Shown here: in pieces, positions 39,601-64,000 of the stretch
Numbering within the stretch: position 1 is the stretch's first letter
Layout of the letters: the number at the start of each line of letters is the position of its first letter
NCBI GenBank assembly: GCA_964016885.1
Contig: OZ024743.1
Location: forward strand, 177,816,001-177,880,000
DNA from: Eledone cirrhosa
Taxonomy: Eukaryota
Direction of reading: 5' to 3'
DNA: 64,000 nt
Notes under the pieces: generated by a model
What the model saw: only the letters and a program-made list of their open reading frames with translations
Database searches by the model: none
What the model was told of the DNA's origin: nothing
Made by a program: the position numbers and the translations under genes

Positions 39601-42600
39601 GTTCCAGCAACCTATTATAACAGTTCCAGCTATCTATTATAACAGTGTCATCTATCTATTATAACAGTTCCAGCAACCTATTATAACAGTTCCAGCTATC
39701 TATTATAACAGTTCCAGCAACCTATTATAACAGTTCCAGCTATCTATTATAACAGTTCCAGCAACCTATTATAACAGTTCCAGCTATCTATTATAACAGT
39801 GCCATCTATCTATTATAACAGTTCCAGCTATCTATTATAACAATGTCAGCTATCTATTATACCAGTGTCATCTATCTATTATAACAGTTCCAGCTATCTA
39901 TTATAACAGTGTCATCTATCTATTATAACAGTTCCAGCAACCTATTATAACAGTTCCAGCTATCTATTATAACAGTGTCATCTATCTATTATAACAGTTC
40001 CAGCTATCTATTATAACAGTGTCATCTATCTATTATAACAGTTCCAGCTATCTATTATAACAGTTCCAGCTATCTATTATAACAGTGCCATCTATCTATT
40101 ATAACATTTCCAGCTATCTATTATAACAATGTCAGCTATCTATTATAACAGTGTCATCTATCTATTATAACAGTGTCATCTATCTATTATAACAGTGTCA
40201 TATATTTATTATAATAGTTCCAGCTATCTATTATAACAGTCAGCTATCTAATATAACAGTGTCATCTATCTATTATAACAGTGTCATCTATCTATTATAA
40301 CAGTTCCAGCTATCTATTATAACAGTGTCATCTATCTATTATAACAGTTCCAGCTATCTATTATAACAGTTCCAGCTATCTATTTTAACAGTGTCATCTA
40401 TCTATTATAACAGTTCCAGCAACCTATTATAACAGTGTCATCTATCTTTTATAACACCTCCAGCTATCTATTATAAGAGTGTCATCTATCTACTATAAGA
40501 GTGTCATCTATCTATTATAACAGTGTCATCTATCTATTATAACAGTGTCATATATTTATTATAACAGTTCCAGCTATCTATTATAACATTTCCAGCTATC
40601 TATTATGACAGTGTCATCTATATATTATAACAGTGTCATCTATCTATTATAACAGCGTCATCTATTTATTATAACAGTGTCATCTATCTATTATAACAGT
40701 GTCTTTTATCTATTATAACAGTTCCAGCTATCTATTATAACAGTGTCATCTATCTATTATAACAGTGTCATCTATCTATTATAACAGTTCCAGCTATCTA
40801 TTATAACAGTGTCATCTATCTATTATAACAGTGTCATCTATCTATTATAACAGTGTCATCTATCTATTATAACAGTTCCAGCTATCTATTATAACAGTGT
40901 CATCTATCTATTATAACAGTGTCATCTATCTAGTATAACAGTGTCATCTATCTATTATAACAGTGTCATCTATCTATTATAACAGTGTCATCTATCTATT
41001 ATAACAGTTCCAGCTATCTATTATAACAGTGTCATCTATCTATTATAACAGTTCCAGCTATCTATTATAACAGTTCCAGCTATCTATTATAACAGTTCCA
41101 GCTATCTATTATAACAGTTCCAGCTATCTATTATAACAGTTCCAGCTATCTATTATAACAGTGTCATCTATCTATTATAACAGTGTCATCTATCTATTAT
41201 AACAGTGTCATCTACCTATTATAACAGTTCCAGCTATCTATTATAACAGTGTCATCTATCTATTATAACAGTGTCATCTATCTAGTATAACAGTGTCATC
41301 TATCTATTATAACAGTTCCAGCTATCTATTATAACAGTTCCAGCTATCTATTATAACAGTTCCAGCTATCTATTATAACAGTGTCATCTATCTATTATAA
41401 CAGTTCCGGCTATCTATTATAACAGTGTCATCTATCTATTATAACAGTGTCATCTATCTATTATAACAGTTCCAGCTATCTATTATAACAGTGTCATCTA
41501 TCTATTATAACAGTGTCATCTATCTATTATAACAGTTCCGGCTATCTATTATAACAGTGTCATCTATCTATTATAACAGTGTCATCTATCTATTATAACA
41601 GTTCCAGCTATCTATTATAACAGTGTCATCTATCTATTATAACAGTGTCATCTATCTATTATAACAGTTCCAGCAACCTATTATAACAGTGTCATCTATC
41701 TATTATAACAGTTGCAGCTATCTATTATAACAGTTCCAGCTACCTATTATAACAGTTCTAGATACCTATTATAACAGCTCCAGCTATCTATTATAACAGT
41801 GTCAGCTACCTATTATAACAGTTCCAGCTATCTATTATAACAGTTCCAGCTATCTATTATAACAGTGTCATCTATCTATTATAACAGTGTCATCTATCTA
41901 TTATAACAGTGTCAGCTATCTATTATAACAGTGTCATCTATCTATTATAACAGTGTCATCTATCTATTATAACAGTGTCAGCTACCTATTATAACAGTTC
42001 CAGCTATCTATTATAACAGTGTCAGCTACCTATTATAACAGTTCCAGCTATCTATTATAACAGTTCCAGCTATCTATTATAACAGTGTCATCTATCTATT
42101 ATAACAGTTCCAGCTATGTATTATAACAGTTCCAGCTATCTATTATAACAGTTCCATCTATCTATTATAACAGTTCCACCTACCTATTATAACAGTGTCA
42201 TCTATCTATTATAACAGTGTCAGCTATCTATTATAACAGTGTCAGCTATCTATTATAACAGTGTCATCTATCTATTATAACAGTTCCAGCTATGTATTAT
42301 AACAGTTCCAGCTATCTATTATAACAGTTCCACCTATCTATTATAACATTGTCATCTATCTATTATAACAGTGTCTGCTGTCTATTATAACAGTTCCAGC
42401 TATCTATTATAACAGATCCAGCTACCTATTATAACAGTTCCGGCTATCTTTTATAATAATGTCAGCTACCTATTATAACAGTTCAAGCTATCTAACATAA
42501 CCGTTCCAGCTATCTATTATAACAGTTCCAGCTATCTATTATAACAGTTCCAGCTATCTATTATAACAGTGTCATCTATTTATTATAACAGTGTCATCTA

Positions 42601-45600
42601 GATATTACAACAGTGTCAGCTATCTATTATAACAGTGTCATCTATCTATTACAACAGTGTCAGCTATCTATTATAACAGTGTCATCTACCTATTATAACA
42701 GTGTCTGCTGTCTATTATAACAGTTCCAGCTATCTATTATAACAGTTCCAGCTATCTATTATAACAGTGTCATCTATCTATTATAACAGTATCATATATC
42801 TATTATAACAGTTCCAGCTACCTATTATAACAGTATCATCTATCTATTATAACAGTGTCATCTATCTATTATAACAGTGTCATCTATCTATTATAACAGT
42901 GTCATCTATCTATTATAACAGTTCCAGCTATCTATTATAACAGTTCCAGCTATCTATTATAACAGTGTCATCTATCTATTATAACAGTGTCATCTATCTA
43001 TTATAACAGTTCCAGCTATGTATTATAACAGTTCCAGCTATCTATTATAACAGTGTCATGTATCTATTATAACAGTGTCATCTACCTATTATAACAGTGT
43101 CTGCTGTCTATTATAACAGTTCCAGCTATCTATTATAACAGTTCCAGCTACCTATTATAACAGTTCCAGCTATCTATTATAACAGTGTCATCTATCTATT
43201 ATAACAGTATTATCTATCTATTATAACAGTTCCAGCTACCTATTATAACAGTATCATCTATCTATTATAACAGTGTCATCTATCTATTATAACAGTGTCA
43301 TCTATCTATTATAACAGTGTCATCTATCTATTATAACAGTTCCAGCTATCTATTATAACAGTTCCAGCTATCTATTATAACAGTGTCATCTATCTATTAT
43401 AACAGTGTCATCTATCTATTATAACAGTTCCAGCTATCTATTATAACAGTGTCATGTATCTATTATAACAGTGTCATCTACCTATTATAATAGTGTCTGC
43501 TGTCTATTATAACAGTTCCAGCTATCTATTATAACAGTGTCATCTATCTACTATAACAGTTCCAGCTACCTATTATAATAGTGTCATCTATCTATTATTA
43601 TAGTGTCATCTATATATTATAACAGTTCCAGCTATCTATTATAACAGTGTCATGTATCTATTATAACAGTATCATCTATCTATTATAACAGTGTCATCTA
43701 TCTATTATAACAGTGTCATCTAGCTATTATAACAGTGTCATCTATCTATTATAACAGTGTCATCTATCTATTATAACAGTTCCAGCTATCTATTATAACA
43801 GTTCCAGCTACCTATTATAACAGTTCCAGCTACCTATTATAACAGTTCCAGCTACATATTATTACAGTTCCAGCTATCTATTATAACAGTGTCATCTATC
43901 TATTATAACAGTTCCATCGATCTATTATAACAGTTGCAGCTATCTATTATAACAGTTGCAGCTATCTATTATAACAGTTCCAGCTACCTATTATAACAGT
44001 TCCAGCTATCTATTATAACGGTGTCTTTTATCTATTATAACAGTGTCATCTATATATTATAACAGTGTTATCTATCTATTATAACAGTGTCAGCTATCTA
44101 TTATAACAGTTCCTGCTACCTATTATAACAGTTCCAGCTATCTATTATAACAGTGTCATCTATCTATTATAACAGTGTCATCTATCTATTATAACAGTGT
44201 CATCTATCTATTATAACAGTTCCAGCTATCTATTATAACAGTGTCATCTATCTATTATAACAGTATCATCTATCTATTATAACAGTATCATCTATCTATT
44301 ATAACAGTATCATCTATCTATTATAACACTTCCAGCTATCTATTATAACAGTTCCATCTATCTATTATAACAGTTCCAACTATCTATTATAACAGTGTCA
44401 TCTATCTATTATAACAGTGTCATCTATCTATTATAACAGTTCCAGCTATCTATTATAACAGTGTCATCTATCTATTATAACAGTGTCATCTATCTATTAT
44501 AACAGTGTCATCTATCTATTATAACAGTGTCATCTATCTATTATAACAGTGTCATCTATCTATTATAACAGTATCATCTATCTATTATAACAGTATCATC
44601 TATCTATTATAACAGTTCCAGCTATCTATTATAACAGTGTCATCTATCTATTATAACAGTTCCATCTATCTATTATAACAGTGTCATCTATCTATTATAA
44701 CAGTTCCATCTATCTATTATAACAGTTCCAACTATCTATTATAACAGTTCCAACTATCTATTATAACAGTTCCAGCTATCTATTATAACAGTTCCAACTA
44801 TCTATTATAACAGTTCCAGCTATCTATTATAACAGTGTCATCTATCTATTATAACAGTGTCATCTATCTATTATAACAGTGTCAGCTATCTATTATAACA
44901 GTGTCATCTATCTATTATAACAGTGTCATCTATCTATTATAACAGTTCCATCTATCTATTATAACAGTGTCAGCTATCTATTATAACAGTGTCATCTATC
45001 TATTATAACAGTATCATCTATCTATTATAACAGTGTCATCTATCTATTATAACAGTTCCAGCTATCTATTATAACAGTGTCATCTATCTATTATAACAGT
45101 GTCATCTATCTATTATAACAGTTCCATCTATCTATTATAACAGTGTCATCTATCTATTATAACAGTTCCAGCTATCTATTATAACAGTGTCATCTATCTA
45201 TTATAACAGTGTCATCTATCTATTATAGCAGTGTCATCTATCTATTATAACAGTGTCAGCTATCTATTATAACAGTGTCATCTATCTATTATAACAGTGT
45301 CATCTATCTATTATAACAGTTCCAGCTATCTATTATAACAGTGTCAACTATCTATTATAACAGTGTCATCTATCTATTATAACAGTTCCAGCTATCTATT
45401 ATAACAATGTCATCTATCTATTATAACAGTTCCAGCTATCTATTATAACAGTGTCATCTATCTATTATAACAGTTCCAGCTATCTATTATAACAGTGTCA
45501 TCTATCTATTATAACAGTTCCAGCTATCTATTATAACAGTGTCATCTATCTAGTATAACAGTGTCATCTATCTATTATAACAGTGTCATCTATCTATTAT

Positions 45601-48600
45601 AACAGTTCCATCTATCTATTATAACAGTGTCATCTATCTATTATAACAGTGTCATCTATCTATTATAACAGTGTCAGCTATCTATTATAACAGTGTCATC
45701 TATCTATTATAACAGTATCATCTATCTATTATAACAGTATCATCTATCTATTATAACAGTGTCATCTATCTATTATAACAGTGTCATCTATCTATTATAA
45801 CAGTGTCATCTACCTATTATAACAGTGTCATCTATCTATTATAACAGTTCAAGCTATCTATTATAACAGTGTCATCTATCTAATATAACAGTTCCAGCTA
45901 TCTATTATAACAGTGTCATCTATCTAATATAACAGTTCCAGCTATCTATTATAACAGTTCCATCTATCTATTATAACAGTATCATCTATCTATTATAACA
46001 GTATCATCTATCTATTATAACAGTGTCATCTATCTATTATAACAGTGTCATCTATCTATTATAACAGAGTCATCTACCTATTATAACAGTGTCATCTATC
46101 TATTATAACAGTTCAAGCTATCTATTATAACAGTGTCATCTATCTAATATAACAGTTCCAGCTATCTATTATAACAGTGTCATCTATCTATTATAACAGT
46201 GTCATCTATCTAATATAACAGTTCCAACTATCTATTATAACAGTTCCAACTATCTATTATAACAGTTCCATCTATCTATTATAACAGTTCCAGCTATCTA
46301 TTATAACAGTTCCAGCTATCTATTATAACAGTGTCAACTATCTATTATAACAGTGTCATCTATCTATTATAACGGTATCATCTATCTATTATAACAGTGT
46401 CATCTATCTAATATAACAGTTCCAGCTATCTATTATAACAGTTCCATCTATCTATTATAACAGTTCCAGCTATCTATTATAACAGTTCCAGTTATCTATT
46501 ATAACAGTTCCAGCTATCTATTATAACAGTTCCAGCTATCTATTATAACAGTGTCAACTATCTATTATAACAGTGTCATCTACCTATTATAACAGTGTCA
46601 TCTATCTATTATAACAGTTCCAGCTATCTATTATAACAGTTCCAGCTACCTATTATAACAGTGTCATCTATCTATTATAACAGTGTCATCTATCTATTAT
46701 AACAGTTCCAGCTATCTATTATAACAGTGTCATCTATCTATTATAACAGTTCCAGCTACCTATTATAACAGTTCCAGCTATCTATTATAACAGTTCCAGC
46801 TATCTATTATAACAGTGTCATCTATCTATTATAACAGTTCCAGCTACCTATTATAACAGTTCCAGCTACCTATTATAACAGTTCCAGCTACCTATTATAA
46901 CAGTTCCAGCTATCTATTATAACAGTGTCATGTATCTATTATAACAGTGTCATCTACCTATTATAACAGTGTCTGCTGTCTATTATAACAGTTCCAGCTA
47001 TCTATTATAACAGTTCCAGCTACCTATTATAACAGTTCCAGCTATCTATTATAACAGTGTCATCTATCTATTATAACAGTATTATCTATCTATTATAACA
47101 GTTCCAGCTACCTATTATAACAGTATCATCTATCTATTATAACAGTGTCATCTATCTATTATAACAGTGTCATCTATCTATTATAACAGTGTCATCTATC
47201 TATTATCACAGTTCCAGCTATCTATTATAACAGTTCCAGCTATCTATTATAACAGTGTCATCTATCTATTATAACAGTGTCATCTATCTATTATAACAGT
47301 TCCAGCTATCTATTATAACAGTGTCATGTATCTATTATAACAGTGTCATCTACCTATTATAATAGTGTCTGCTGTCTATTATAACAGTTCCAGCTATCTA
47401 TTATAACAGTGTCATCTATCTACTATAACAGTTCCAGCTACCTATTATAATAGTGTCATCTATCTATTATTATAGTGTCATCTATATATTATAACAGTTC
47501 CAGCTATCTATTATAACAGTGTCATGTATCTATTATAACAGTATCATCTATCTATTATAACAGTGTCATCTATCTATTATAACAGTGTCATCTATCTATT
47601 ATAACAGTGTCATCTATCTATTATTATAGTGTCATCTATCTATTATAACAGTGTCATCTATCTTTTATAACAGTTCCAGCTATCTATTATAACAGTTCCA
47701 GCTATCTATTATAACAGTGTCATCTATCTATTATAACAGTGTCATCTACCTATTATAACAGTGTCATCTATCTATTATAACAGTGTCATCTATCTATTAT
47801 AACAGTTCCAGCTATCTATTATAACAGTTCCAGCTACCTATTATAACAGTTCCAGCTACCTATTATAACAGTTCCAGCTACATATTATTACAGTTCCAGC
47901 TATCTATTATAACAGTGTCATCTATCTATTATAACAGTTCCATCGATCTATTATAACAGTTGCAGCTATCTATTATAACAGTTCCAGCTATCTATTATAA
48001 CAGTTCCAGCTATCTATTATAACAGTTGCAGCTATCTATTATAACAGTTCCAGCTACCTATTATAACAGTTCCAGCTATCTATTATAACGGTGTCTTTTA
48101 TCTATTATAACAGTGTCATCTATATATTATAACAGTGTCATCTATCTATTATAACAGTGTCAGCTATCTATTATAACAGTTCCTGCTACCTATTATAACA
48201 GTTCCAGCTATCTATTATAACAGTGTCATCTATCTATTATAACAGTGTCATCTATCTATTATAACAGTGTCATCTATCTATTATAACAGTTCCAGCTATC
48301 TATTATAACAGTGTCATCTATCTATTATAACAGTATCATCTATCTATTATAACAGTATCATCTATCTATTATAACAGTATCATCTATCTATTATAACAGT
48401 ATCATCTATCTATTATAACACTTCCAGCTATCTATTATAACAGTTCCATCTATCTATTATAACAGTTCCAGCTACCTATTATAACAGTATCATCTATCTA
48501 TTATAACAGTATCATCTATCTATTATAACAGTATCATCTATCTATTATAACACTTCCAACTATCTATTATAACACTTCCAACTATCTATTATAACAGTTC

Positions 48601-51600
48601 CAACTATCTATTATAACAGTTCCAGCTATCTATTATAACAGTTCCAACTATCTATTATAACAGTTCCAGCTATCTATTATAACAGTGTCATCTATCTATT
48701 ATAACAGTGTCATCTATCTATTATAACAGTGTCAGCTATCTATTATAACAGTGTCATCTATCTATTATAACAGTGTCATCTATCTATTATAACAGTTCCA
48801 TCTATCTATTATAACAGTGTCAGCTATCTATTATAACAGTGTCATCTATCTATTATAACAGTATCATCTATCTATTATAACAGTGTCATCTATCTATTAT
48901 AACAGTTCCAGCTATCTATTATAACAGTGTCATCTATCTATTATAACAGTGTCATCTATCTATTATAACAGTTCCATCTATCTATTATAACAGTGTCATC
49001 TATCTATTATAACAGTTCCAGCTATCTATTATAACAGTGTCATCTATCTATTATAACAGTGTCATCTATCTATTATAACAGTGTCATCTATCTATTATAA
49101 CAGTGTCAGCTATCTATTATAACAGTGTCATCTATCTATTATAACAGTGTCATCTATCTATTATAACAGTTCCAGCTATCTATTATAACAGTGTCAACTA
49201 TCTATTATAACAGTGTCATCTATCTATTATAACAGTTCCAGCTATCTATTATAACAGTGTCATCTATCTATTATAACAGTTCCAGCTATCTATTATAACA
49301 GTGTCATCTATCTATTATAACAGTTCCAGCTATCTATTATAACAGTGTCATCTATCTATTATAACAGTTCCAGCTATCTATTATAACAGTGTCATCTATC
49401 TATTAAAACAGTGTCATCTATCTATTATAACAGTGTCATCTATCTATTATAACAGTATCATCTATCTATTATAACAGTATCATCTATCTATTATAACAGT
49501 GTCATCTATCTATTATAACAGTGTCATCTATCTATTATAACAGTGTCATCTACCTATTATAACAGTGTCATCTATCTATTATAACAGTGTCATCTATCTA
49601 TTATAACAGTTCCAGCTATCTATTATAACAGTTCCAGCTACCTATTATAACAGTTCCAGCTACCTATTATAACAGTTCCAGCTACATATTATTACAGTTC
49701 CAGCTATCTATTATAACAGTGTCATCTATCTATTATAACAGTTCCATCGATCTATTATAACAGTTGCAGCTATCTATTATAACAGTTCCAGCTATCTATT
49801 ATAACAGTTCCAGCTATCTATTATAACAGTTGCAGCTATCTATTATAACAGTTCCAGCTACCTATTATAACAGTTCCAGCTATCTATTATAACGGTGTCT
49901 TTTATCTATTATAACAGTGTCATCTATATATTATAACAGTGTCATCTATCTATTATAACAGTGTCAGCTATCTATTATAACAGTTCCTGCTACCTATTAT
50001 AACAGTTCCAGCTATCTATTATAACAGTGTCATCTATCTATTATAACAGTGTCATCTATCTATTATAACAGTGTCATCTATCTATTATAACAGTTCAAGC
50101 TATCTATTATAACAGTGTCATCTATCTATTATAACAGTATCATCTATCTATTATAACAGTATCATCTATCTATTATAACAGTATCATCTATCTATTATAA
50201 CAGTATCATCTATCTATTATAACACTTCCAGCTATCTATTATAACAGTTCCATCTATCTATTATAACAGTTCCAGCTACCTATTATAACAGTATCATCTA
50301 TCTATTATAACAGTATCATCTATCTATTATAACAGTATCATCTATCTATTATAACACTTCCAACTATCTATTATAACAGTTCCAACTATCTATTATAACA
50401 GTTCCAACTATCTATTATAACAGTTCCAGCTATCTATTATAACAGTTCCAACTATCTATTATAACAGTTCCAGCTATCTATTATAACAGTGTCATCTATC
50501 TATTATAACAGTGTCATCTATCTATTATAACAGTGTCAGCTATCTATTATAACAGTGTCATCTATCTATTATAACAGTGTCATCTATCTATTATAACAGT
50601 TCCATCTATCTATTATAACAGTGTCAGCTATCTATTATAACAGTGTCATCTATCTATTATAACAGTATCATCTATCTATTATAACAGTGTCATCTATCTA
50701 TTATAACAGTTCCAGCTATCTATTATAACAGTGTCATCTATCTATTATAACAGTGTCATCTATCTATTATAACAGTTCCATCTATCTATTATAACAGTGT
50801 CATCTATCTATTATAACAGTTCCAGCTATCTATTATAACAGTGTCATCTATCTATTATAACAGTGTCATCTATCTATTATAACAGTGTCATCTATCTATT
50901 ATAACAGTGTCAGCTATCTATTATAACAGTGTCATCTATCTATTATAACAGTGTCATCTATCTATTATAACAGTTCCAGCTATCTATTATAACAGTGTCA
51001 ACTATCTATTATAACAGTGTCATCCATCTATTATAACAGTTCCAGCTATCTATTATAACAGTGTCATCTATCTATTATAACAGTTCCAGCTATCTATTAT
51101 AACAGTGTCATCTATCTATTATAACAGTTCCAGCTATCTATTATAACAGTGTCATCTATCTATTATAACAGTTCCAGCTATCTATTATAACAGTGTCATC
51201 TATCTATTAAAACAGTGTCATCTATCTATTATAACAGTGTCATCTATCTATTATAACAGTATCATCTATCTATTATAACAGTATCATCTATCTATTATAA
51301 CAGTGTCATCTATCTATTATAACAGTGTCATCTATCTATTATAACAGTGTCATCTACCTATTATAACAGTGTCATCTATCTATTATAACAGTTCAAGCTA
51401 TCTATTATAACAGTGTCATCTATCTAATATAACAGTTCCAGCTATCTATTATAACAGTGTCATCTATCTAATATAACAGTTCCAGCTATCTATTATAACA
51501 GTGTCATCTATCTAATATAACAGTTCCAGCTATCTATTATAACAGTGTCATCTATCTAATATAACAGTTCCAGCTATCTATTATAACAGTGTCATCTATC

Positions 51601-54600
51601 TATTATAACAGTGTCATCTATCTAATATAACAGTTCCAACTATCTATTATAACAGTTCCAACTATCTATTATAACAGTTCCATCTATCTATTATAACAGT
51701 TCCAGCTATCTATTATAACAGTTCCAGCTATCTATTATAACAGTGTCAACTATCTATTATAACAGTGTCATCTATCTATTATAACAGTATCATCTATCTA
51801 TTATAACAGTGTCATCTATCTATTATAACAGTGTCATCTATCTATTATAACAGTGTCATCTATCTATTATAACAGTGTCATCTATCTATTATTATAGTGT
51901 CATCTATCTATTATAACAGTGTCATCTATCTTTTATAACAGTTCCAGCTATCTATTATAACAGTTCCAGCTATCTATTATAACAGTGTCATCTATCTATT
52001 ATAACAGTGTCATCTACCTATTATAACAGTGTCATCTATCTATTATAACAGTGTCATCTATCTATTATAACAGTTCCAGCTATCTATTATAACAGTTCCA
52101 GCTACCTATTATAACAGTTCCAGCTACCTATTATAACAGTTCCAGCTACATATTATTACAGTTCCAGCTATCTATTATAACAGTGTCATCTATCTATTAT
52201 AACAGTTCCATCGATCTATTATAACAGTTGCAGCTATGTATTATAACAGTTCCAGCTATCTATTATAACAGTTCCAGCTATCTATTATAACAGTTGCAGC
52301 TATCTATTATAACAGTTCCAGCTACCTATTATAACAGTTCCAGCTATCTATTATAACGGTGTCTTTTATCTATTATAACAGTGTCATCTATATATTATAA
52401 CAGTGTCATCTATCTATTATAACAGTGTCAGCTATCTATTATAACAGTTCCTGCTACCTATTATAACAGTTCCAGCTATCTATTATAACAGTGTCATCTA
52501 TCTATTATAACAGTGTCATCTATCTATTATAACAGTGTCATCTATCTATTATAACAGTTCCAGCTATCTATTATAACAGTGTCATCTATCTATTATAACA
52601 GTATCATCTATCTATTATAACAGTATCATCTATCTATTATAACAGTATCATCTATCTATTATAACAGTATCATCTATCTATTATAACACTTCCAGCTATC
52701 TATTATAACAGTTCCATCTATCTATTATAACAGTTCCAACTATCTATTATAACAGTGTCATCTATCTATTATAACAGTGTCATCTATCTATTATAACAGT
52801 TCCAGCTATCTATTATAACAGTGTCATCTATCTATTATAACAGTGTCATCTATCTATTATAACAGTGTCATCTATCTATTATAACAGTGTCATCTATCTA
52901 TTATAACAGTGTCATATATCTATTATAACAGTATCATCTATCTATTATAACAGTATCATCTATCTATTATAACAGTTCCAGCTATCTATTATAACAGTGT
53001 CATCTATCTATTATAACAGTTCCATCTATCTATTATAACAGTGTCATCTATCTATTATAACAGTTCCATCTATCTATTATAACAGTTCCAACTATCTATT
53101 ATAACAGTTCCAACTATCTATTATAACAGTTCCAGCTATCTATTATAACAGTTCCAACTATCTATTATAACAGTTCCAGCTATCTATTATAACAGTGTCA
53201 TCTATCTATTATAACAGTGTCATCTATCTATTATAACAGTGTCAGCTATCTATTATAACAGTGTCATCTATCTATTATAACAGTGTCATCTATCTATTAT
53301 AACAGTTCCATCTATCTATTATAACAGTGTCAGCTATCTATTATAACAGTGTCATCTATCTATTATAACAGTATCATCTATCTATTATAACAGTGTCATC
53401 TATCTATTATAACAGTTCCAGCTATCTATTATAACAGTGTCATCTATCTATTATAACAGTGTCATCTATCTATTATAACAGTTCCATCTATCTATTATAA
53501 CAGTGTCATCTATCTATTATAACAGTTCCAGCTATCTATTATAACAGTGTCATCTATCTATTATAACAGTGTCATCTATCTATTATAACAGTGTCATCTA
53601 TCTATTATAACAGTGTCAGCTATCTATTATAACAGTGTCATCTATCTATTATAACAGTGTCATCTATCTATTATAACAGTTCCAGCTATCTATTATAACA
53701 GTGTCAACTATCTATTATAACAGTGTCATCTATCTATTATAACAGTTCCAGCTATCTATTATAACAGTGTCATCTATCTATTATAACAGTTCCAGCTATC
53801 TATTATAACAGTGTCATCTATCTATTATAACAGTTCCAGCTATCTATTATAACAGTGTCATCTATCTAGTATAACAGTGTCATCTATCTATTATAACAGT
53901 GTCATCTATCTATTATAACAGTTCCATCTATCTATTATAACAGTGTCATCTATCTATTATAACAGTGTCATCTATCTATTATAACAGTGTCAGCTATCTA
54001 TTATAACAGTGTCATCTATCTATTATAACAGTATCATCTATCTATTATAACAGTATCATCTATCTATTATAACAGTGTCATCTATCTATTATAACAGTGT
54101 CATCTATCTATTATAACAGTGTCATCTACCTATTATAACAGTGTCATCTATCTATTATAACAGTTCAAGCTATCTATTATAACAGTGTCATCTATCTAAT
54201 ATAACAGTTCCAGCTATCTATTATAACAGTGTCATCTATCTAATATAACAGTTCCAGCTATCTATTATAACAGTTCCATCTATCTATTATAACAGTATCA
54301 TCTATCTATTATAACAGTATCATCTATCTATTATAACAGTGTCATCTATCTATTATAACAGTGTCATCTATCTATTATAACAGTGTCATCTACCTATTAT
54401 AACAGTGTCATCTATCTATTATAACAGTTCAAGCTATCTATTATAACAGTGTCATCTATCTAATATAACAGTTCCAGCTATCTATTATAACAGTGTCATC
54501 TATCTAATATAACAGTTCCAGCTATCTATTATAACAGTGTCATCTATCTATTATAACAGTGTCATCTATCTAATATAACAGTTCCAACTATCTATTATAA

Positions 54601-56095
54601 CAGTTCCAACTATCTATTATAACAGTTCCATCTATCTATTATAACAGTTCCAGCTATCTATTATAACAGTTCCAGCTATCTATTATAACAGTGTCAACTA
54701 TCTATTATAACAGTGTCATCTATCTATTATAACAGTATCATCTATCTATTATAACAGTGTCATCTATCTAATATAACAGTTCCAGCTATCTATTATAACA
54801 GTTCCATCTATCTATTATAACAGTTCCAGCTATCTATTATAACAGTTCCAGCTATCTATTATAACAGTTCCAGCTATCTATTATAACAGTTCCAGCTATC
54901 TATTATAACAGTGTCAACTATCTATTATAACAGTGTCATCTACCTATTATAACAGTGTCATCTATCTATTATAACAGTTCCAGCTATCTATTATAACAGT
55001 TCCAGCTACCTATTATAACAGTGTCATCTATCTATTATAACAGTGTCATCTATCTATTATAACAGTTCCAGCTATCTATTATAACAGTGTCATCTATCTA
55101 TTATAACAGTTCCAGCTACCTATTATAACAATTCCAGCTATCTATTATAACAGTTCCAGCTATCTATTATAACAGTGTCATCTATCTATTATAACAGTTC
55201 CAGCTACCTATTATAACAGTTCCAGCTACCTATTATAACAGTTCCAGCTACCTATTATAACAGTTCCAGCTATCTATTATAACAGTTCCAACTATCTATT
55301 ATAACAGTGTCATCTATCTATTATAACAGTTCCAGCTATCTATTATAACAGTTCCAGCTATCTATTATAACAGTGTCATCTATCTATTATAACAGTTCCA
55401 GCTATCTATTATAACAGTGTCATCTATCTATTATAACAGATCCAGCTATGTATTATAACAGTGTCATCTATCTATTATAACAGATCCAGCTATGTATTAT
55501 AACAGTGTCATCTATCTATTATAACAGATCCAGCTATCTATTATAACAGTGTCATCTATATATTATAACAGATCCAGCTATGTATTATAACAGTGTCATC
55601 TATCTCTTATAACAGTTCCAGCTTTCTATTATAACAGTGTCATCTACCTATTATAACAGTTCCAGCTATCTATTATAACAGATCCAGCTTTCTATTATAA
55701 CAGTTTCAGCTATCTAATATAACAGTGTCATTTATTTATTATAACAGTGTCGTCTAGATATTATAACAGTGTCAGCTATCTATTATAACAGTGTTATCTA
55801 TGTATTATAACAGTGTCATCTATCTATTATAACAGTGTCATCTATCTAGTATAACAGTGTCATCTATGTATTATAAAAGTGTCATCTATCTATTATAACA
55901 GTTTCAGCTATTTATTATAACAGTTCCAGCTATCTATTATAACAGTTTCAGCTATCTATTATAACAGTGTCATCTATCTATTATAACAGTGTCATCTATC
56001 TAGTATAACAGTATCATCTATCTATTATAACAGTTTCAGCTATTTATTATAACAGTTCCAGCTATTTATTATAACAGTTCTAGCTATCTATTATA
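36661..56095. repeat. 22-bp satellite array, left block (about 880 monomers)
   Basis: Monomer TATCTATTATAACAGT plus 6 variable bases, mostly GTCATC or TCCAGC; period 22 confirmed at several points. Confidence 0.99.
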
Positions 56096-56316
56096 TCTAT
56101 CTATGGGATGGACACACGCGTATAACTTGCTAAGTAAGTTCTGTTTAAATTTCTATAGAAATTCTTGTCTGATAACTTTAATTTTTGTACCATTTTGTAG
56201 AGGGACTGCCAGGTCAAACTTTGATCTGGTCAGTCTCTCAAAATATTCTACGCCTTTAGGCGAAATAGTTAAACAAAAAAAAAGTTTTTTCTTGTTGAAA
56301 AGTCAATATTTTTTAA

Positions 56317-58104
56317 ATGGCCGAAGCTTCTTCACCAAAATTCGAAGGAGGAAAGGGGAAGATGAACTTACAGCTTCCCCCTGCCACTGTCACAGTAGCA
56401 GAGGTCAAGAAGAAAGGTCAGCCAGAGGAAGAATTCTCTCCACCTGTTAACCGACAACTTGACGTTGCCATGGCAACAACCCAAAGAACCAGCAGCAACA
56501 GCAACAACAACAACAATGCGACGGACGAAAGCAACACCAATAACAATAACAATAACAACAACAAGACCATTAACGGTGACAACAACAACAATGATAACAA
56601 CAACACCACCAACGACAACAACAACACAAACAAACAAAATTTCTCCTTCGCCGAGACGACAAGGAAAACCCTCGACTATCTGCCAGTAGATATAACAAAA
56701 GCGAAGGAGCTACTGGCGGATGCGAAAAAATATATAGTGTACGGGGAAAATGGTTCATTCACAATCCATTCCCCCCCGGAACTAAAAAGCCAGAGACTCC
56801 TAAACACGGTCATGTTTAGGACAATCTCGAACAAAAGTAAAAAACCAGCTCAACCATCACAGAGCGAGATAGAGCTGGTTTTAAAAGACGTCATGAAGGA
56901 CATCACCTTCATTCAGAAGGATAGACTCTACGGGAGTCTATCCATTCTCATGAAGGACAGGGACACAGCAGTGAAACTGTCCATCAAACCAATCACATCC
57001 ACCGCATACACCTTCTACCCTACGTACATGGGTAGAAGAACACAAAAAATAAAAATCCACACCATCCTGCCGATTATGGACATATGGTGGGTTTTGACAG
57101 GTTTTCTGGACCTGGAGGATGACATGCTGGTGTCCATGGGAAAGGCATCGGGTGACGCGTTCAGTGGAACGAGCCTCGAACTTGTAGTTCAAATGAGGCC
57201 CGAAAGGATCGCCCAGATCCCTGAACGCGTCATACTGGATGATCTAACCTTCATCAACATTACCGTTGAGGGTAGACGGCCCTCGTGTTACCTCTGCGGA
57301 ACCAGAGGTCACCTGAGGGCTGTCTGTCCCCAACTTAATAAGAAAACCCCAATCCTGCCTACACCACCAACAACTGCACAACCAACACAATCACCACAAC
57401 TACCACTACAAAAACAACCACCACAGCTCAAACCAAAACAAAACAATGTCCAACCCATCCCCTCCACTCAAAAAACAAAAACAATTTCCAAAACACCCGT
57501 ACCGCAAACACAACCCGAAAATATACCCCTCCCCTCCAACGCGGAAGATGATCCTAGTTCGTCGTCAGACGAGGAGGAGCACTTCCACACAATCAAAAGA
57601 AAAAAAAGAAAACACACCTCAGACACACAAATGAAAAAAACCCCTCCCCAAAACATAACACTGACACCAACACAAAAGAGCTCACAACAGCAAACAAAAA
57701 ACACCACACAAAAACAAAAACATGCATACACATACATAAATACAAGAAACAAAAAACTGTTAAACATTGTGTACAACAACAATCTAATAAAAACACAAGG
57801 GCCTAACTTCACCCAGGCAGGGGATTTCCCCCACCTCAAAATGATTAAGGCCCCACAGGACACCTATAAAACTTTAAAAAACAATTTTAAAGAGGACGTG
57901 GGTCCCCCCTGCGTCGGGCCCATTAACCGCGTCCTCCTAAAAAACTATCCCACCCCCTCCCCAAACACCCTCACAACTCCAAGCTCCCCAACCACACAAC
58001 ACACTGATGCCCCCACACTTCCACAAACCACCACCCCACCCAACAACCCATCCCCCACCCTAATGGAAATTGTGCAGCCCGATACCCGGGACGCAGAGAG
58101 GTAA
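56317..58104 (+). CDS. Tx1-type ORF1 nucleic-acid-binding protein (595 aa)
   Basis: Uninterrupted ORF; CYLCGTRGHLRAVC knuckle after EGRRP; Asn-rich N-terminal and Pro/Gln/Thr-rich C-terminal regions; basic cluster KRKKRK. Confidence 0.9.
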   Translation: MAEASSPKFEGGKGKMNLQLPPATVTVAEVKKKGQPEEEFSPPVNRQLDVAMATTQRTSSNSNNNNNATDESNTNNNNNNNNKTINGDNNNNDNNNTTNDNNNTNKQNFSFAETTRKTLDYLPVDITKAKELLADAKKYIVYGENGSFTIHSPPELKSQRLLNTVMFRTISNKSKKPAQPSQSEIELVLKDVMKDITFIQKDRLYGSLSILMKDRDTAVKLSIKPITSTAYTFYPTYMGRRTQKIKIHTILPIMDIWWVLTGFLDLEDDMLVSMGKASGDAFSGTSLELVVQMRPERIAQIPERVILDDLTFINITVEGRRPSCYLCGTRGHLRAVCPQLNKKTPILPTPPTTAQPTQSPQLPLQKQPPQLKPKQNNVQPIPSTQKTKTISKTPVPQTQPENIPLPSNAEDDPSSSSDEEEHFHTIKRKKRKHTSDTQMKKTPPQNITLTPTQKSSQQQTKNTTQKQKHAYTYINTRNKKLLNIVYNNNLIKTQGPNFTQAGDFPHLKMIKAPQDTYKTLKNNFKEDVGPPCVGPINRVLLKNYPTPSPNTLTTPSSPTTQHTDAPTLPQTTTPPNNPSPTLMEIVQPDTRDAER

Positions 58105-58128
58105 GTGCCTTTTCTCTTCACCACCAAC

Positions 58129-60369
58129 ATGGCTATGCTAAGAGTAGGCTGTTTAAATGCGCGTGGCCTGGGCTCAACTTGGAAGCAAGCAATGCTTCTA
58201 AATGACCTCAGGACACAACGTATAGATGTGATGGTTATTTGCGAGGCCCGGATCAGCAACGTGCGACAGCTGGCCCCCACCTTTGATGACTTTGAGATGC
58301 ACGCATCTCTCTGTCAGCCCGGAGGTGGGGGTGGAGTTGTCGTTCTGCTGCAAAAACATCTGGGTCTCGCAACACAGATGGTACATTTGGACCCGGAGGG
58401 TCGACTAGTGGTTCTGGACCTTGGCAGTGGTAAAGGCGGAGCGTTTAGGTTGGTAGCCGCCTACGGCCCTTTCGGGTCAATGCGGCCGGACTTCTTCCAT
58501 CGTCTGGAGACTTTTCTAGGGACGTCCCGCTCCTTGCTATTAGTGGGGGACTGGAATGGTATCCTAGATGCACGCTGGGACTACGTAGGGGCCTGCCCCG
58601 ATAGAGAGGGGTGTAATAGCCTCAAAGGGTTAATCGGTCGATTTGACCTGGCCGATAGATATCGACTAGATTTTCCGACTGCGCCAACCTGGACTTGGGC
58701 AAATCGTAGCGGATCATCTAGGTCGTACCTAGATAGGTTCTTAGTTAGAATTAAGGATAAGGACTTTTTAAGTTGTCCAAAAATGCGCATGGTTGGCTAT
58801 TCAGACCACAAATTAGTGACCTGCATGGTCAACCTTGACAGAACTCATAGACAGGGCCCCGGTTACTGGAAGCTCAACTTGTCCTTGCCGGCAAGTAGAG
58901 CCTACAGGAATCGGATTAGTACGTTAGTTAAGGAACGGTTGACTGGAGCGATCGTCAACAGCAGGTGGTGGGTATCTCTAAAGAGAGAGATTAGAGTAGT
59001 CTCGATAGAATTTAGTAAGGTTCTAGCTGCGGATAGGAATAGGAAGGAAAGGGAGCTAATAGATAGAGTAGAAGAGGCAATTAGAAGCGGCGACGTGGCC
59101 AGAGTGCTAGCGTCGAGAACGGCTTTGAGCCAGTTTTTCGACGCGAAGCACGAAGGCTGCGTTGTCCGAAGTAAAATACGTGCTCTAGGGAACGAGGGGA
59201 CCAAAGCTGTTAGCTGGGCCCGCGTGACAGAGGCCAACAGTGGAACTAAATCCACCATCCGGTCTTTGCGAGACCTGGATGGACGGGCGATTCTTGAGCC
59301 TAAGCAGATGTGTGAGGCCTTTCAAAGGCACTTTGCCCGACTGTTCGGGAGGGGCGGGGAGCCGGTTGGGAACGTGGACTTCGGTCCATACCTCGACGGC
59401 CTGCCGCGCCTCTCGGACAGGGAGGCGAAGTCCTGCGAGGAGCCGATTTCGGCCGCTGAGATAGAGGACGTGCTGAGCCAATGCGGCAAACGCAAATCCC
59501 CGGGTCTCGATGGTCTTCCTTACGAATTATATCTAGCTATGCCGGACTTGTTCCCCGATCTCCTCGAGGCGGTCTACTGCAACTGGCAACAGAACGGGAG
59601 AATTCCCTGTACTGTGACCAAGGGCGTAGTCACGCTAGTGAGGAAGGACGAGAACAAGGGGGACGAAATAAGTAACTTCAGGCCCATAACACTGCTAAAT
59701 ACAGAGTTACAGATTTTGGCCAAGGTGCTAGCAAAGAGGTTGGCGCTTGTCGTGGGCAACCTGGTGGGAGATGCGCAGACATGCGCTATCCCGTCCAGGT
59801 CCATCCATGACAACCTCCACCTCATGCGATACATCATAGAGAGGGTTGGGAACGAATCCGGCTTTGGTGGGGCTCTGATCAACTTGGATCAATCTAAGGC
59901 GTTCGATAGGGTCGACCATGGTTACCTGGATGCGGTGCTAGCGGCGGCAGGCTTCGGACCCGTTTTCAGGGGCTGGATCACTGCTATGCACAGCAGCCGC
60001 ATCTGCTCTAGGGTCAAGGTGAACGGCTACCTCTCGGAGCCGTTCAAAATCGCCCGGTCCATCCGACAAGGGTGCCCTCTCTCCTCCCTTCTGTATGTGT
60101 TGACTCTCGAGCCACTACTGCGGAAGTTGGAGTTGTTGCAGGGCATCCCTTTGGAACCGGGATTGCGGAAAGCGGTGTCGGCCTACGCCGATGACGTGAC
60201 AGTAATGGTGTCGACGGCCTCCGAAATCGAGGCGGTCGGCACCTTACTGGAGGAGTACGAAAAGTTCACAGGGGCTAAGCTGAACCGGGACAAGTCGATC
60301 GGTTTGCAACTCGGCACGTGGAGGGGCAGACCGATGCCCTCCGATAGCGTCGTCGGACGCTGGACGTAG
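58129..60369 (+). CDS. ORF2 part 1: AP endonuclease plus reverse transcriptase, ending at an in-frame TAG
   Basis: LNARGL, GDWN, YLDRF, SDHK, GPGYWKLN, KSPGLDGLP, NFRPITLLN, LDQSKAFDRV, RQGCPLS, YADD; first ATG at 58129. Confidence 0.93.
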   Translation: MAMLRVGCLNARGLGSTWKQAMLLNDLRTQRIDVMVICEARISNVRQLAPTFDDFEMHASLCQPGGGGGVVVLLQKHLGLATQMVHLDPEGRLVVLDLGSGKGGAFRLVAAYGPFGSMRPDFFHRLETFLGTSRSLLLVGDWNGILDARWDYVGACPDREGCNSLKGLIGRFDLADRYRLDFPTAPTWTWANRSGSSRSYLDRFLVRIKDKDFLSCPKMRMVGYSDHKLVTCMVNLDRTHRQGPGYWKLNLSLPASRAYRNRISTLVKERLTGAIVNSRWWVSLKREIRVVSIEFSKVLAADRNRKERELIDRVEEAIRSGDVARVLASRTALSQFFDAKHEGCVVRSKIRALGNEGTKAVSWARVTEANSGTKSTIRSLRDLDGRAILEPKQMCEAFQRHFARLFGRGGEPVGNVDFGPYLDGLPRLSDREAKSCEEPISAAEIEDVLSQCGKRKSPGLDGLPYELYLAMPDLFPDLLEAVYCNWQQNGRIPCTVTKGVVTLVRKDENKGDEISNFRPITLLNTELQILAKVLAKRLALVVGNLVGDAQTCAIPSRSIHDNLHLMRYIIERVGNESGFGGALINLDQSKAFDRVDHGYLDAVLAAAGFGPVFRGWITAMHSSRICSRVKVNGYLSEPFKIARSIRQGCPLSSLLYVLTLEPLLRKLELLQGIPLEPGLRKAVSAYADDVTVMVSTASEIEAVGTLLEEYEKFTGAKLNRDKSIGLQLGTWRGRPMPSDSVVGRWT

Positions 60370-61566
60370 GGCCCGGTGAAGTTGCTCGGGGTCTGGTTCG
60401 GACCGGACCTCCAGGTGGAGAAAAACTGGGCGGAGGTTACGAACAGGGTGTTTGCACTGACCCAGAAGTGGGCCAGTTGCAAACTATCCCTGACAGGTCG
60501 GGCGGAGGTGGCGAACACCTACATAGCGTCCGTCATCTACTACCGCCTGACCGTAGTGCCCTGCCCAAGGGAAACCCTCACCAAGATGGAGCGCGCGCTC
60601 TTCCAATTCCTTTGGAAGAGGCGGGCTCCTATGGTGAGGAGATCCATCTGCTGTCAACACCCTTCGAAAGGAGGGCTGGGGATGCCGTGGCTAATGATGC
60701 GTAAACACGCATTAAGGCTACGGCACCTCTACGTATTCCTCACCGGACAACCGGTGTGGGCCTCGTTTGTGAGACGAACCTTTCCCAGACTCGTCTCACT
60801 CACCGAGCTGCAATCCTGGGTCAAGCAAAGACCGAGAAAACTGGGCGCCTGGCACACTGAGTGTGCCCAGGCGCTCACCGCCCTCTGGCAGGCGGATCCG
60901 GTTATCAGTGGAGACTCCACCGCAACATTCTATAGAGGGCTGGTACGCAGCAGGTGCGACGACGCCCTCGGAGAAGCCCTAGACATGGAGGAGGACGAAC
61001 TGGCCAGCCTGTTCGGTAGGACATTCAGCCCGGGACCTATGGACAACTTCCAGAAGTCCCTGGCCTGGCAGTGCTACCGAGGGGCTTTACCCGTTCGAGA
61101 AAGGCTCTACAGACACGGGCGCCCGGGTAGGGACCCCGCCAAAAAGATCTGTCCCAGATGCGTGTGCGACGAGGAAACCGTTGCACACGCATTAGTACAC
61201 TGCTCGGGCGTAGCCGATCTGTGGGGCTATGTCGAACAACTGCTGTCAAGGGTGGGACCGATCCGGTTGACCACCGAGTCTATTGTAATGATCAAGCCGC
61301 CTCCCCCCTTCAAAGATGAAGCAGAGGCGGTGTTTCTGTGCGTAATAGCCATGGCGAAAGAGGTTGTATGGTGGACGCGTCTGAAAGGACTGAGGTCGGG
61401 CACCTTTCTCTCTGGCCAACAACTGGTCCGTTTCTTCCGATATCATTTCGGAAGAAGGATCAGGATGGAGAGAGAGGTGCTGCACCTCAGCCGTTTCTAT
61501 GAAAGATGGGTGAAAGTGGCGAGAATGGCCCGTGTGAATGGGCCTTCACTCTACATCAGACTATAG
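60370..61566 (+). CDS. ORF2 part 2: end of RT, thumb region and C-terminal CCHC finger (same frame, after TAG)
   Basis: VKLLGVWF, LSLTGRAEVAN, KGGLGMP, CPRC...ETVAHALVHC. Confidence 0.88.
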   Translation, partial: GPVKLLGVWFGPDLQVEKNWAEVTNRVFALTQKWASCKLSLTGRAEVANTYIASVIYYRLTVVPCPRETLTKMERALFQFLWKRRAPMVRRSICCQHPSKGGLGMPWLMMRKHALRLRHLYVFLTGQPVWASFVRRTFPRLVSLTELQSWVKQRPRKLGAWHTECAQALTALWQADPVISGDSTATFYRGLVRSRCDDALGEALDMEEDELASLFGRTFSPGPMDNFQKSLAWQCYRGALPVRERLYRHGRPGRDPAKKICPRCVCDEETVAHALVHCSGVADLWGYVEQLLSRVGPIRLTTESIVMIKPPPPFKDEAEAVFLCVIAMAKEVVWWTRLKGLRSGTFLSGQQLVRFFRYHFGRRIRMEREVLHLSRFYERWVKVARMARVNGPSLYIRL

Positions 61567-61830
61567 GTGAGGAAGATGAAAGACCAAGGGAGCACCCCTT
61601 CTCTGTGCTCCTGAGGAGAAGGGTTGCACACTTTTTTCGGGGGTGTGTGCGACCCCCCAAGGCGCCTCCTCTCTATTGAGGATTTTGTTAAAAATTTTAT
61701 TTTTTGTTATATCTTATTTTATTTTTATATTTTGTTATTGCCTTCTCCTTATTGAGGACGCCTTTTTGTGTAAACTCCCCCCTTTGTACTTGTCCCACTT
61801 TTGATGCCCTAGTGGCAAATAAAAGAAACA

Positions 61831-64000
61831 TATCTATTATAACAGTTCCATCTATCTATTATAACAGTTCCATCTATCTATTATAACAGTTCCAACTATC
61901 TATTATAACAGTGTCATCTAGATATTATAACTGTTTCAACTATCTATTATAACAGTTCCAACTATCTATTATAACTGTTTCAACTATCTATTATAACAGT
62001 TCCAACTATCTATTATAACAGTTCCAACTATCTATTATAACAGTTCCAACTATCTATTATAACAGTTCCAACTATCTATTATAACAGTTCCATCTATCTA
62101 TTATAACTGTTTCAACTATCTATTATAACAGTTCCAACTATCTATTATAACTGTTTCAACTATCTATTATAACAGTTCCAACTATCTATTATAACAGTTC
62201 CAACTATCTATTATAACAGTTCCAACTATCTATTATAACAGTTCCAACTATCTATTATAACAGTTCCATCTATCTATTATAACTGTTTCAACTATCTATT
62301 ATAACAGTTCCAACTATCTATTATAACAGTTCCAACTATCTATTATAACAGTTCCAACTATCTATTATAACAGTTCCAACTATCTATTATAACAGTTCCA
62401 ACTATCTATTATAACAGTTCCAACTATCTATTATAACAGTTCCAACTATCTATTATAACAGTTCCATCTATCTATTATAACTGTTTCAACTATCTATTAT
62501 AACAGTTCCAACTATCTATTATAACAGTTCCAACTATCTATTATAACAGTTCCAACTATCTATTATAACAGTTCCATCTATCTATTATAACAGTTCCAAC
62601 TATCTATTATAACAGTTCCAACTATCTATTATAACAGTTCCATCTATCTATTATAACAGTTCCAACTATCTATTATAACAGTTCCATCTATCTATTATAA
62701 CAGTTCCATCTATCTATTATAACAGTTCCATCTATCTATTATAACAGTTCCAACTATCTATTATAACAGTTCCATCTATCTATTATAACAGTTCCATCTA
62801 TCTATTATAACAGTTTCAACTATCTATTATAACTGTTCCAACTATCTATTATAACAGTTCCAACTATCTATTATAACTGTTTCAGCTATCTATTATAACA
62901 GTTCCAACTATCTATTATAACAGTTCCAACTATCTATTATAACAGTTCCAACTATCTATTATAACAGTTTCAACTATCTATTATAACAGTTTCAACTATC
63001 TATTATAACTGTTCCAACTATCTATTATAACAGTTCCAGCTATCTATTATAACAGTTCCATCTATCTATTATAACAGTTCCAACTATCTATTATAACTGT
63101 TTCAGCTATCTATTATAACAGTGTCATCTATCTATTATAACTGTTCCAACTATCTATTATAACAGTTCCAACTATCTATTATAACTGTGTCATCTATCTA
63201 TTATAACAGTTCCAACTATCTATTATAACTGTTCCAACTATCTATTATAACTGTTTCAGCTATCTATTATAACAGTGTCATCTATCTATTATAACTGTTC
63301 CAACTATCTATTATAACACTTCCATCTATCTATTATAACTGTTTCATCTATCTATTATAACAGTTCCATCTATCTATTATAACTGTTTCATCTATCTATT
63401 ATAACAGTTCCATCTATCTATTATAACAGTTCCAGCTATCTATTATAACAGTTCCAACTATCTATTATAACAGTTCCAGCTATCTATTATAACAGTTCCA
63501 TCTATCTATTATAACAGTTCCATCTATCTATTATAACAGTATCATCTATCTATTATAACAGTGTCATCTATCTATTATAACAGTTCCAACTATCTATTAT
63601 AACAGTTTCAACTATCTATTATAACTGTTCCAACTATCTATTATAACTGTTTCATCTATCTATTATAACAGTTCCAACTATCTATTATAACAGTTCCAAC
63701 TATCTATTATAACAGTTTCAACTATCTATTATAACTGTTCCAACTATCTATTATAACAGTTCCAACTATCTATTATAACAGTTCCAACTATCTATTATAA
63801 CAGTTCCAGCTACCTATTATAACTGTTCCAACTATCTATTATAACTGTTTCATCTATCTATTATAACAGTTCCAACTATCTATTATAACAGTTCCATCTA
63901 TCTATTATAACTGTTTCATCTATCTATTATAACAGTTCCAACTACCTATTATAACAGTTCCAACTATCTATTATAACTGTTTCAACTATCTATTATAACA
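61831..64000. repeat. 22-bp satellite array, right block (at least 98 monomers, runs off window)
   Basis: Same core; dominated by TCCAAC/TCCATC and AACTGTTTCA variants. Confidence 0.99.

Follow-up and report, generated by a model that had tools for sequence, protein, structure and literature searches.

The 64,000-nt stretch of Eledone cirrhosa DNA analysed here (GenBank assembly GCA_964016885.1, contig OZ024743.1, positions 177,816,001 to 177,880,000 of the forward strand; referred to as the window) contains a 22-bp tandem array, in which a Tx1-like long interspersed nuclear element (LINE) is inserted on the plus strand. The element comprises 5,726 nt (56105-61830) and carries two open reading frames (ORFs) between its untranslated regions (UTRs). 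It is flanked by a target site duplication (TSD), and its 5' UTR holds words resembling the downstream promoter element (DPE). The features of the locus are as follows.

36663..56095, plus strand: left part of the array, about 883 units, TATCTAT in most of them; an incidental target
56085..56095, plus strand: 5' copy of the TSD, 11 bp, TATCTATTATA, as read from the junction
56096..56104, plus strand: 5' leader, 9 nt, TATC-like, TCTATCTAT, not in the target unit
56105..56316, plus strand: 5' UTR with the DPE-like words GGATG (56106-56110), GGACA (56110-56114) and ACACGCG (56114-56120), and GTAAGT (56134-56139)
56317..58104, plus strand: ORF1, 595 aa, with an N-rich start, a predicted RRM-like core, a CCHC knuckle (aa 323-339) and a low-complexity P/T/Q tail
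58129..61566, plus strand, from the ATG: ORF2, 1,145 codons in the same frame as ORF1, with APE, reverse transcriptase (RT) and C-terminal zinc finger
60367..60369, plus strand: premature stop codon in ORF2, private to the window copy
61567..61830, plus strand: 3' UTR with AATAAA (61818-61823), AGAAA and the terminal CA (61829-61830), without poly(A)
61831..61841, plus strand: 3' copy of the TSD, 11 bp, TATCTATTATA
61831..64000, plus strand: right part of the array, which extends about 1.2 kb past the window end

An earlier sequence-only reading had described a complete 5.7-kb element without frameshift inside the array, with no poly(A) at its 3' junction. Both points hold, with TATCTATTATA on either side and TCTATCTAT as an extra at the 5' side, and the single premature stop in ORF2 has to be added. 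Among loci L061-L120, all 39 other copies that extend over this position read a sense codon instead of the stop. In the alignment of full-length copies the window copy departs from the commonest letter of each column at 0.21% of sites and has 9 private substitutions; it is a dead, incidental insertion. Of the two TSDs proposed earlier, the 11-bp one with a 9-nt 5' extra is preferred because it matches the junction pattern of the family. The 7-bp alternative is disfavoured, as it would leave a broken monomer and disregards the family-wide leader.

The 3' ends of the family were counted genome-wide by an exact 28-nt 3' anchor. It gave 1,946 matches, of which 1,891 (97.2%) are followed by NN-TAT[A/C]T; outside the array, window positions match this pattern at a rate of about 1.5% per strand. 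Flank positions 3-5 read TAT and position 7 reads T in 64 of 64 flanks, and the insertion into (TC)n or (TTC)n that characterises the Tx1 families Kibi and Koshi was not seen among them. A sample of 93 distinct 3' ends, essentially all consecutive ones on contig C1 up to 153 Mb after removal of duplicates, was sorted by 3' flank into 63 copies at (TATC)≥2, 8 at (TA)≥4, 6 at TATC followed by TA, 12 at other TAT(A/C)T sites and 4 without the motif. Target preference is common in the Tx1 clade and its working bar has been set at >20% of flanks (Kojima, PMC4494074; here and below, published statements are taken from parts of the cited papers); the values for this family are 97% with the motif and 63/93 in (TATC)n. 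Targeting of (TATC)n microsatellites by this Tx1-like family is strongly supported. It had been proposed from the window as a site-specific preference for TATC repeats, and the collection of 3' flanks recommended at the time revealed TATC enrichment, 1,891 of 1,946 ends having the motif, and no pattern of unrelated flanks; TATC at the 5' junctions of truncated copies agrees with it.

In the genome long (TA)n arrays outnumber long (TATC)n arrays about 80-fold, with 1.35 million starts of (TA)10 per strand vs 17,144 starts of (TATC)5. By rough arithmetic the per-array preference for TATC over TA is several hundred-fold, which is an order of magnitude only, as the thresholds differ and TATC arrays are multiplied by the insertions.

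The family is young and likely still active. Exact 26-nt 5' ends number 362, and of 60 consecutive ones examined 57 belong to complete copies; both ORFs are open in 22 of these 57. The median divergence from the commonest letter of each column is 0.33%, and the closest pair differs at 2 sites. In ORF2 codons the young and an older subfamily are separated by 84 silent and 57 residue-changing differences, and among the young copies 143 silent and 182 changing differences as well as 12 stops were counted. This contrast is the one expected if the source elements are under selection.

Furthermore, 4,133 of the 17,144 (TATC)5 starts directly follow AAAGAAA-N, compared with 5 for a control pattern. 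Among the first 30 of these 4,133, an ORF2 match was detected upstream in 28 (27 at 68-99% identity and one short piece at 52%), and the other 2 have similar 3' UTR ends. The sister families (68-99% ORF2 identity) have the same target, and 39 of the 93 C1 copies lie no more than 120 nt from a further lineage member. Near-identical pieces also occur, at low depth only, in two runs labelled as other organisms (X5, X6) and are likely derived from diet or contamination rather than from transfer. No RNA run was listed with the family, and X4 and X1 contigs were uninformative on poly(A) and on the transcript start. In a first metagenome scan for the targets of relatives in other species nothing was confirmed. 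In a second, none of 14 end-inspected loci of 56 distant relatives had (TATC)3 or (GATA)3, these relatives being so remote that they say nothing about the lineage. A more distant Tx1-like ORF1 (29% identity; L111:126-1436, minus strand) has CT-rich rather than TATC sequence upstream and possibly belongs to a family with a different target.

The TATC behind the 3' end might also be a tail which the element itself writes by template slippage or read-through, insertion being otherwise weakly specific, e.g. for any TA step. Such a tail would fit the 24% of (TATC)5 array starts located directly behind a 3' end of this lineage as well as the few 3' junctions whose TATC is missing from the 5' flank. 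However, the 5'-truncated copies have TATC upstream too, and in one orientation only, which identifies TATC as target and not as tail. Within 24 nt upstream of 76 truncated copies (TATC)2 is present in 44, (TATC)2 or (TA)4 in 54 and (GATA)2 in none, against a background of 0.1-0.3% for (TATC)2 or (GATA)2 and about 3% with (TA)4 included. A TATC tail is usually missing from copies that entered pure (TA)n or a minisatellite (L068, L069, L077, L104, L112, L073, L079, L108), and the poly(A) copies described below show an RNA ending at CA or CATA. Taking these observations together, a tail written by the element seems improbable, and we consider the TATC repeat to be the target.

Where the target is a minisatellite or unique sequence, the TATC of the 3' flank ends after 5-7 nt, and the flank agrees with the 5' copy of the TSD. 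The TSDs are mostly 7-22 bp long, often with 1-5 nt of microhomology. Fold-back (inverted) duplications were observed at or near the junctions of three 5'-truncated copies (L063, L112, L105). At L082 (C1 42.26 Mb) three tandem copies are separated by repeated TSD-like spacers, reflecting serial insertion at a copy's own junction.

The same counts bear on the 22-bp array, which had been suspected to be a satellite target serving the family as a safe harbour. The monomer pattern has 734 matches in the 3.0-Gb genome, all on one strand, the window accounting for 687 of them and the 1.13 kb that follow for 46; it is therefore a single-locus array of about 23 kb. Although the array offers 861 TATCTAT sites, the family 3' end with this repeat as its flank has one match genome-wide, the window copy, vs 1,946 family ends. 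Repeated insertion into one satellite family (the 'Sat' class in the Fig. 3 legend of PMC4494074) is thus not what is found, with one copy in a single-locus array. About ten other minisatellites (period estimates 18-56 bp) are also targeted, nearly all of them once and a ~48-bp one at three places; every one has TAT(A/C)T in its unit, and this is all they have in common. The window copy is seated cleanly in the array with a TSD, and the targeted minisatellites may indicate that tandem repeats are over-represented among the non-TATC sites. Nevertheless, the single copy and the single locus refute, for this assembly, the notion of a family that seeks out the 22-bp satellite as a safe harbour, and it was abandoned in favour of TAT(C/A)T recognition. 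The monomer types GTGTCATC and TTCCAGC prevail left of the element (36663-56095) and TTCCAAC right of it (61831-64000 and L212:1-1200), the insertion point lying at or near the boundary between homogenised array domains.

The 3' end of the element reads AATAAAAGAAACA and is free of poly(A), with AATAAA, AGAAA and CA making up positions 61818-61830. Across copies the two bases after AAAGAAA are CA, TA or CT. On a tree of 58 full-length copies this dinucleotide changes 6 times, compared with 22.0 on average and never fewer than 16 in 2,000 shuffles; since it is inherited along the copy tree, it belongs to the element. Looking for poly(A) no more than 10 nt from the end yielded 20 overlapping matches, which come from four distinct loci; the tail follows CA at three of them and CATA at one. 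Their surroundings are (TAA)n, a reversed (GATA)n array or AT-rich sequence lacking a clear TSD, and in no case a sense-strand TATC target. One off-target poly(A) copy, between (TAA)n runs (L277/L310, C1 138.806 Mb), occupies the target reported for Dong and possibly moved in trans, and the copy in the reversed (GATA)n array (L329, C10 13.57 Mb) has an inverted 5' piece. We infer that the RNA is polyadenylated at the element end and that on-target priming from the last element bases skips the tail. The first nick would fall on the GATA strand, 0-3 nt from TC|TAT. Targeting determined by the endonuclease has been established for TRAS1, SART1, R1Bm and Tx1L (PMC1919474).

At the 5' end we scored TCTATC within the last 14 nt before the element as a leader, using only copies whose 3' flank is no TATC run. 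Full-length copies mostly have it (14 of 16), truncated ones seldom (6 of 34; Fisher p 3.5e-6). The extra bases beyond the TSD amount to 24 nt (L132/L133, which have one common junction), 15, 9 (window copy), 6 and 5 nt, and TCTCT directly precedes the first unique base in 50 of 67 full-length copies. L132 and L133 (C1 295.84 and 295.92 Mb) have the same 290-nt 5' flank and junction, 26 differences in the body, which place them in different young lineages, and different 3' flanks; this suggests that a duplication took place and that copies then underwent gene conversion or recombination with one another.

In at least six sister head types a DPE-like word lies 20 nt upstream of a (GT/AG)AAG(T/C)T motif, and in a sister family with its own long unique head the word takes position +28 relative to an A at 9 of 14 distinct loci. 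A splice-donor role for the GTAAGT of the 5' UTR (56134-56139) is doubtful, as sister families have AGAAGTT there. The DPE of jockey, Doc, I, F, SART1 and TRAS1 occupies +28 to +32 (PMC4748587). Applied to the present element, this spacing would place the start inside the target repeat, 18, 22 or 26 nt before position 56105 according to which word serves as the DPE. It suggests a transcription start about 18-26 nt upstream, and the 9-nt leader of the window copy was likely copied from the 5' end of an RNA that began in the upstream (TATC)n of its donor.

Alternatively, the targeting may be as described and the 5' TATC extra may arise at integration, by a template jump of the RT onto the target or by repair slippage, with an ordinary promoter at the first unique base. 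Leaders do differ in length (about 5-24 nt), and irregular ones occur at L142 and L281; one sister family with a self-contained head likewise shows variable extra bases at the 5' junction. The extras are, however, largely limited to full-length copies and occur at targets without any TATC run that could have been copied (L132, L181, window copy). Moreover, an identical TCTCT precedes most full-length copies, as stated above, and in another sister family the TATC run is directly followed by the DPE-like word. We consider an origin at integration unlikely, though a serious competitor, and prefer a leader transcribed from the donor repeat.

The predicted proteins are in line with this type of element. 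In ORF2, whose catalytic motifs are present, Pfam searches detected APE (PF03372, E 4e-8), RT (PF00078, E 7e-26) and zf-RVT (E 6e-6, just under the curated cut-off). Its best PDB sequence match is L1 ORF2p (E 2.5e-48), and the ORF2 model (predicted local distance difference test, pLDDT, 85.9) matches human L1 ORF2p with E 2e-53 and an endonuclease TMt of 0.84-0.86. ORF2 has an N-terminal APE, a central RT and a C-terminal zinc finger in a predicted L1-group fold, as in the Tx1 clade. The zinc knuckle of ORF1 scores weakly (PF00098, E 0.051), yet C-C-H-C is invariant in 9 aligned ORF1 proteins (29-96% identity), in agreement with the CCHC of Tx1. Atlas hits of ORF1 (0.89-0.92) are zf-CCHC, RRM and ZCCHC3-type clusters. 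The ORF1 model (pLDDT 66.7) has two alpha/beta units and is predicted to be RRM-like; a Foldseek search with it gave no match at E<=0.001. The combination of a CCHC knuckle with an RRM-like ORF1 has been called consistent with Tx1 (PMC5203782). The ORF1 stop is embedded in AG-GTAAGT, a perfect splice-donor word (window 58095-58131), and the ORF2 ATG follows in frame 8 codons after this stop; the spacer peptide VPFL(F/L)(T/N)TNM between the ORFs is conserved in the copies and in the 87% subfamily.

The closest named proteins are from the octopod Argonauta hians (63-67%), which points to a likely octopod host. In a 41-row RT tree, which contained no Repbase family and no vertebrate L1, the family and an unnamed group at 50-54% fall into a clade (96/92) that also holds fish and turtle proteins, among them a catfish protein automatically named 'transposon TX1 149 kDa', apart from plant L1s. 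A phmmer comparison gave 237 bits to a carp protein vs 155-168 to human L1, over different spans. Membership in the Tx1 clade is likely on these grounds. The unnamed group of ORF2 relatives (P0004-P0071, P0194-P0243; 50-54% RT identity) forms clusters of up to 732 members and is sister to the octopod group.

Taken together, the window copy is best explained as a recent, now stop-disabled member of a young, likely active Tx1-like LINE family that inserts in fixed orientation before TAT(C/A)T, mostly in (TATC)n, the 22-bp array having likely been hit only by way of its TATCTAT; we put the probability of this reading at roughly 85%. Several observations weigh against it. The nick site, the start site and the annealing are all read from the junctions alone. 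The specificity is loose, with 55 of 1,946 ends lacking the motif and 26 of 93 copies in (TA)n or other TAT[A/C]T sites. The enrichment of TATC over TA is in part a circular measure, TATC arrays being split and lengthened by the insertions themselves, and the insertions were counted after selection, so purging from other sites could enlarge the bias. Among the truncated copies 22 of 76 have neither (TATC)2 nor (TA)4 upstream, and some sites have no resolvable TSD (L063, L080, L110, L120, L270). The short TATC that stands at the 3' junction of L080, L120 and L281 and is absent from their 5' flank may point to read-through tails in some insertions. The leader set comprises few copies, which are not fully independent; among them are the window copy, the two loci L132/L133 with their shared junction, one from a sister subfamily and two chosen by eye, and 6 of the truncated copies score leader-positive as well. 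The DPE match, finally, is ambiguous in this family, with three candidate words.

The following course of events can be proposed. RNA polymerase II would start about 18-26 nt before the first unique base, in the (TATC)n of the donor, at a position set by the DPE-like internal motif. The RNA would as a rule be polyadenylated right after AATAAAAGAAA-CA or -CATA, as in the four poly(A) copies. The APE domain presumably nicks the (GATA)n strand 0-3 nt from the TC|TAT step, and reverse transcription may then begin at the last bases of the element and skip the poly(A), in accordance with the observed junction. The duplication left behind is mostly 7-22 bp long, which implies a looser second cut. The TATC leader of a full-length cDNA would finally pair with, or be joined to, the upstream target, leaving the extra TATC seen at the 5' junctions. 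As each insertion duplicates the target and adds TATC, it would create sites for further insertions and give rise to the clusters in which the sister families are seen.

A more far-reaching interpretation is tentative, with the balance tilting somewhat against it: the octopod Tx1 radiation may have made (TATC)n part of its own gene. Some families would have lost their initiator, start in the target repeat, and carry and re-deposit it, in this way building and spreading their own landing pads and promoter starts, so that at least a quarter of the long TATC arrays of the genome would be theirs. If the leader model is true, target choice is tied to promoter function, and a LINE lineage generates a major microsatellite class. 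Moreover, GATA/TATC markers in these animals would often have multicopy DNA as flanks. The hundreds of young junctions, together with sister families having one common target, open the rule of recognition to direct tests.

No TATC- or GATA-targeting LINE was found in the literature searched, whose scope lay outside Repbase, Dfam and the figure labels and supplement of PMC4494074; the earlier suggestion of an undescribed family stands to this extent. For Octopus vulgaris 80 L1-Tx1 families have been reported, 13 of them recently active, in a paper whose main text does not contain 'target' and of which one supplementary table does not contain 'TATC' (PMC13282606). The part of a gastropod survey drawn on here lists L1-Tx1 families without target analysis (PMC11203168). 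Microsatellite targeting by APE-type LINEs has been described as poorly understood (PMC3812793).

The family represents a known kind of system with a target new to the literature searched, and it is an unusually large young family. Tx1 families targeting microsatellites are Kibi at (TC)n and Koshi at (TTC)n in teleosts, and crocodilian families at (TTCC)n/(TTTC)n (PMC4494074, PMC3812793); satellite targets have also been mentioned for Tx1 (PMC4494074), and LINEs of other clades target ACAY, AC, TAA and TG (PMC3812793, PMC4640811). Like Kibi, Koshi and the crocodilian Tx1 elements, the present family is an APE-type two-ORF LINE, likely of the Tx1 group, inserting into a microsatellite. Unlike Kibi and Koshi it is directed to (TATC)n or TAT(A/C)T, and its RT is only 35-40% identical to the fish and turtle proteins examined, none of which is labelled Kibi or Koshi, and falls outside the clade that they form. 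With it, the sequence-specific Tx1 elements gain a (TATC)n/(GATA)n target and a further host group, represented not by a few relics but by some 1,950 copies, many of them intact.

Targeting of short repeats is shared with SART1/TRAS1, Waldo, Mino and Dong, in which it is set largely by the endonuclease (PMC1919474, PMC3812793, PMC7265360), but these elements belong to other clades and have the targets TTAGG, ACAY, AC and TAA. SART1 furthermore needs a long poly(A) for accurate priming, whereas the on-target copies described here are without poly(A). The nearest precedent for the putative target-derived leader is melanogaster-type R1, by analogy with its transcripts, which have been inferred to carry 6-27 nt of upstream 28S target that anneal at the 5' junction (PMC2718515). 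It resembles the present family also in a fixed first nick with a flexible second cut and in tandem arrays formed by insertion into the TSD (PMC2718515). R1 belongs to the R1 clade and occupies a single site in 28S rDNA, whereas the target of the present family is a dispersed microsatellite that can be extended by the element.

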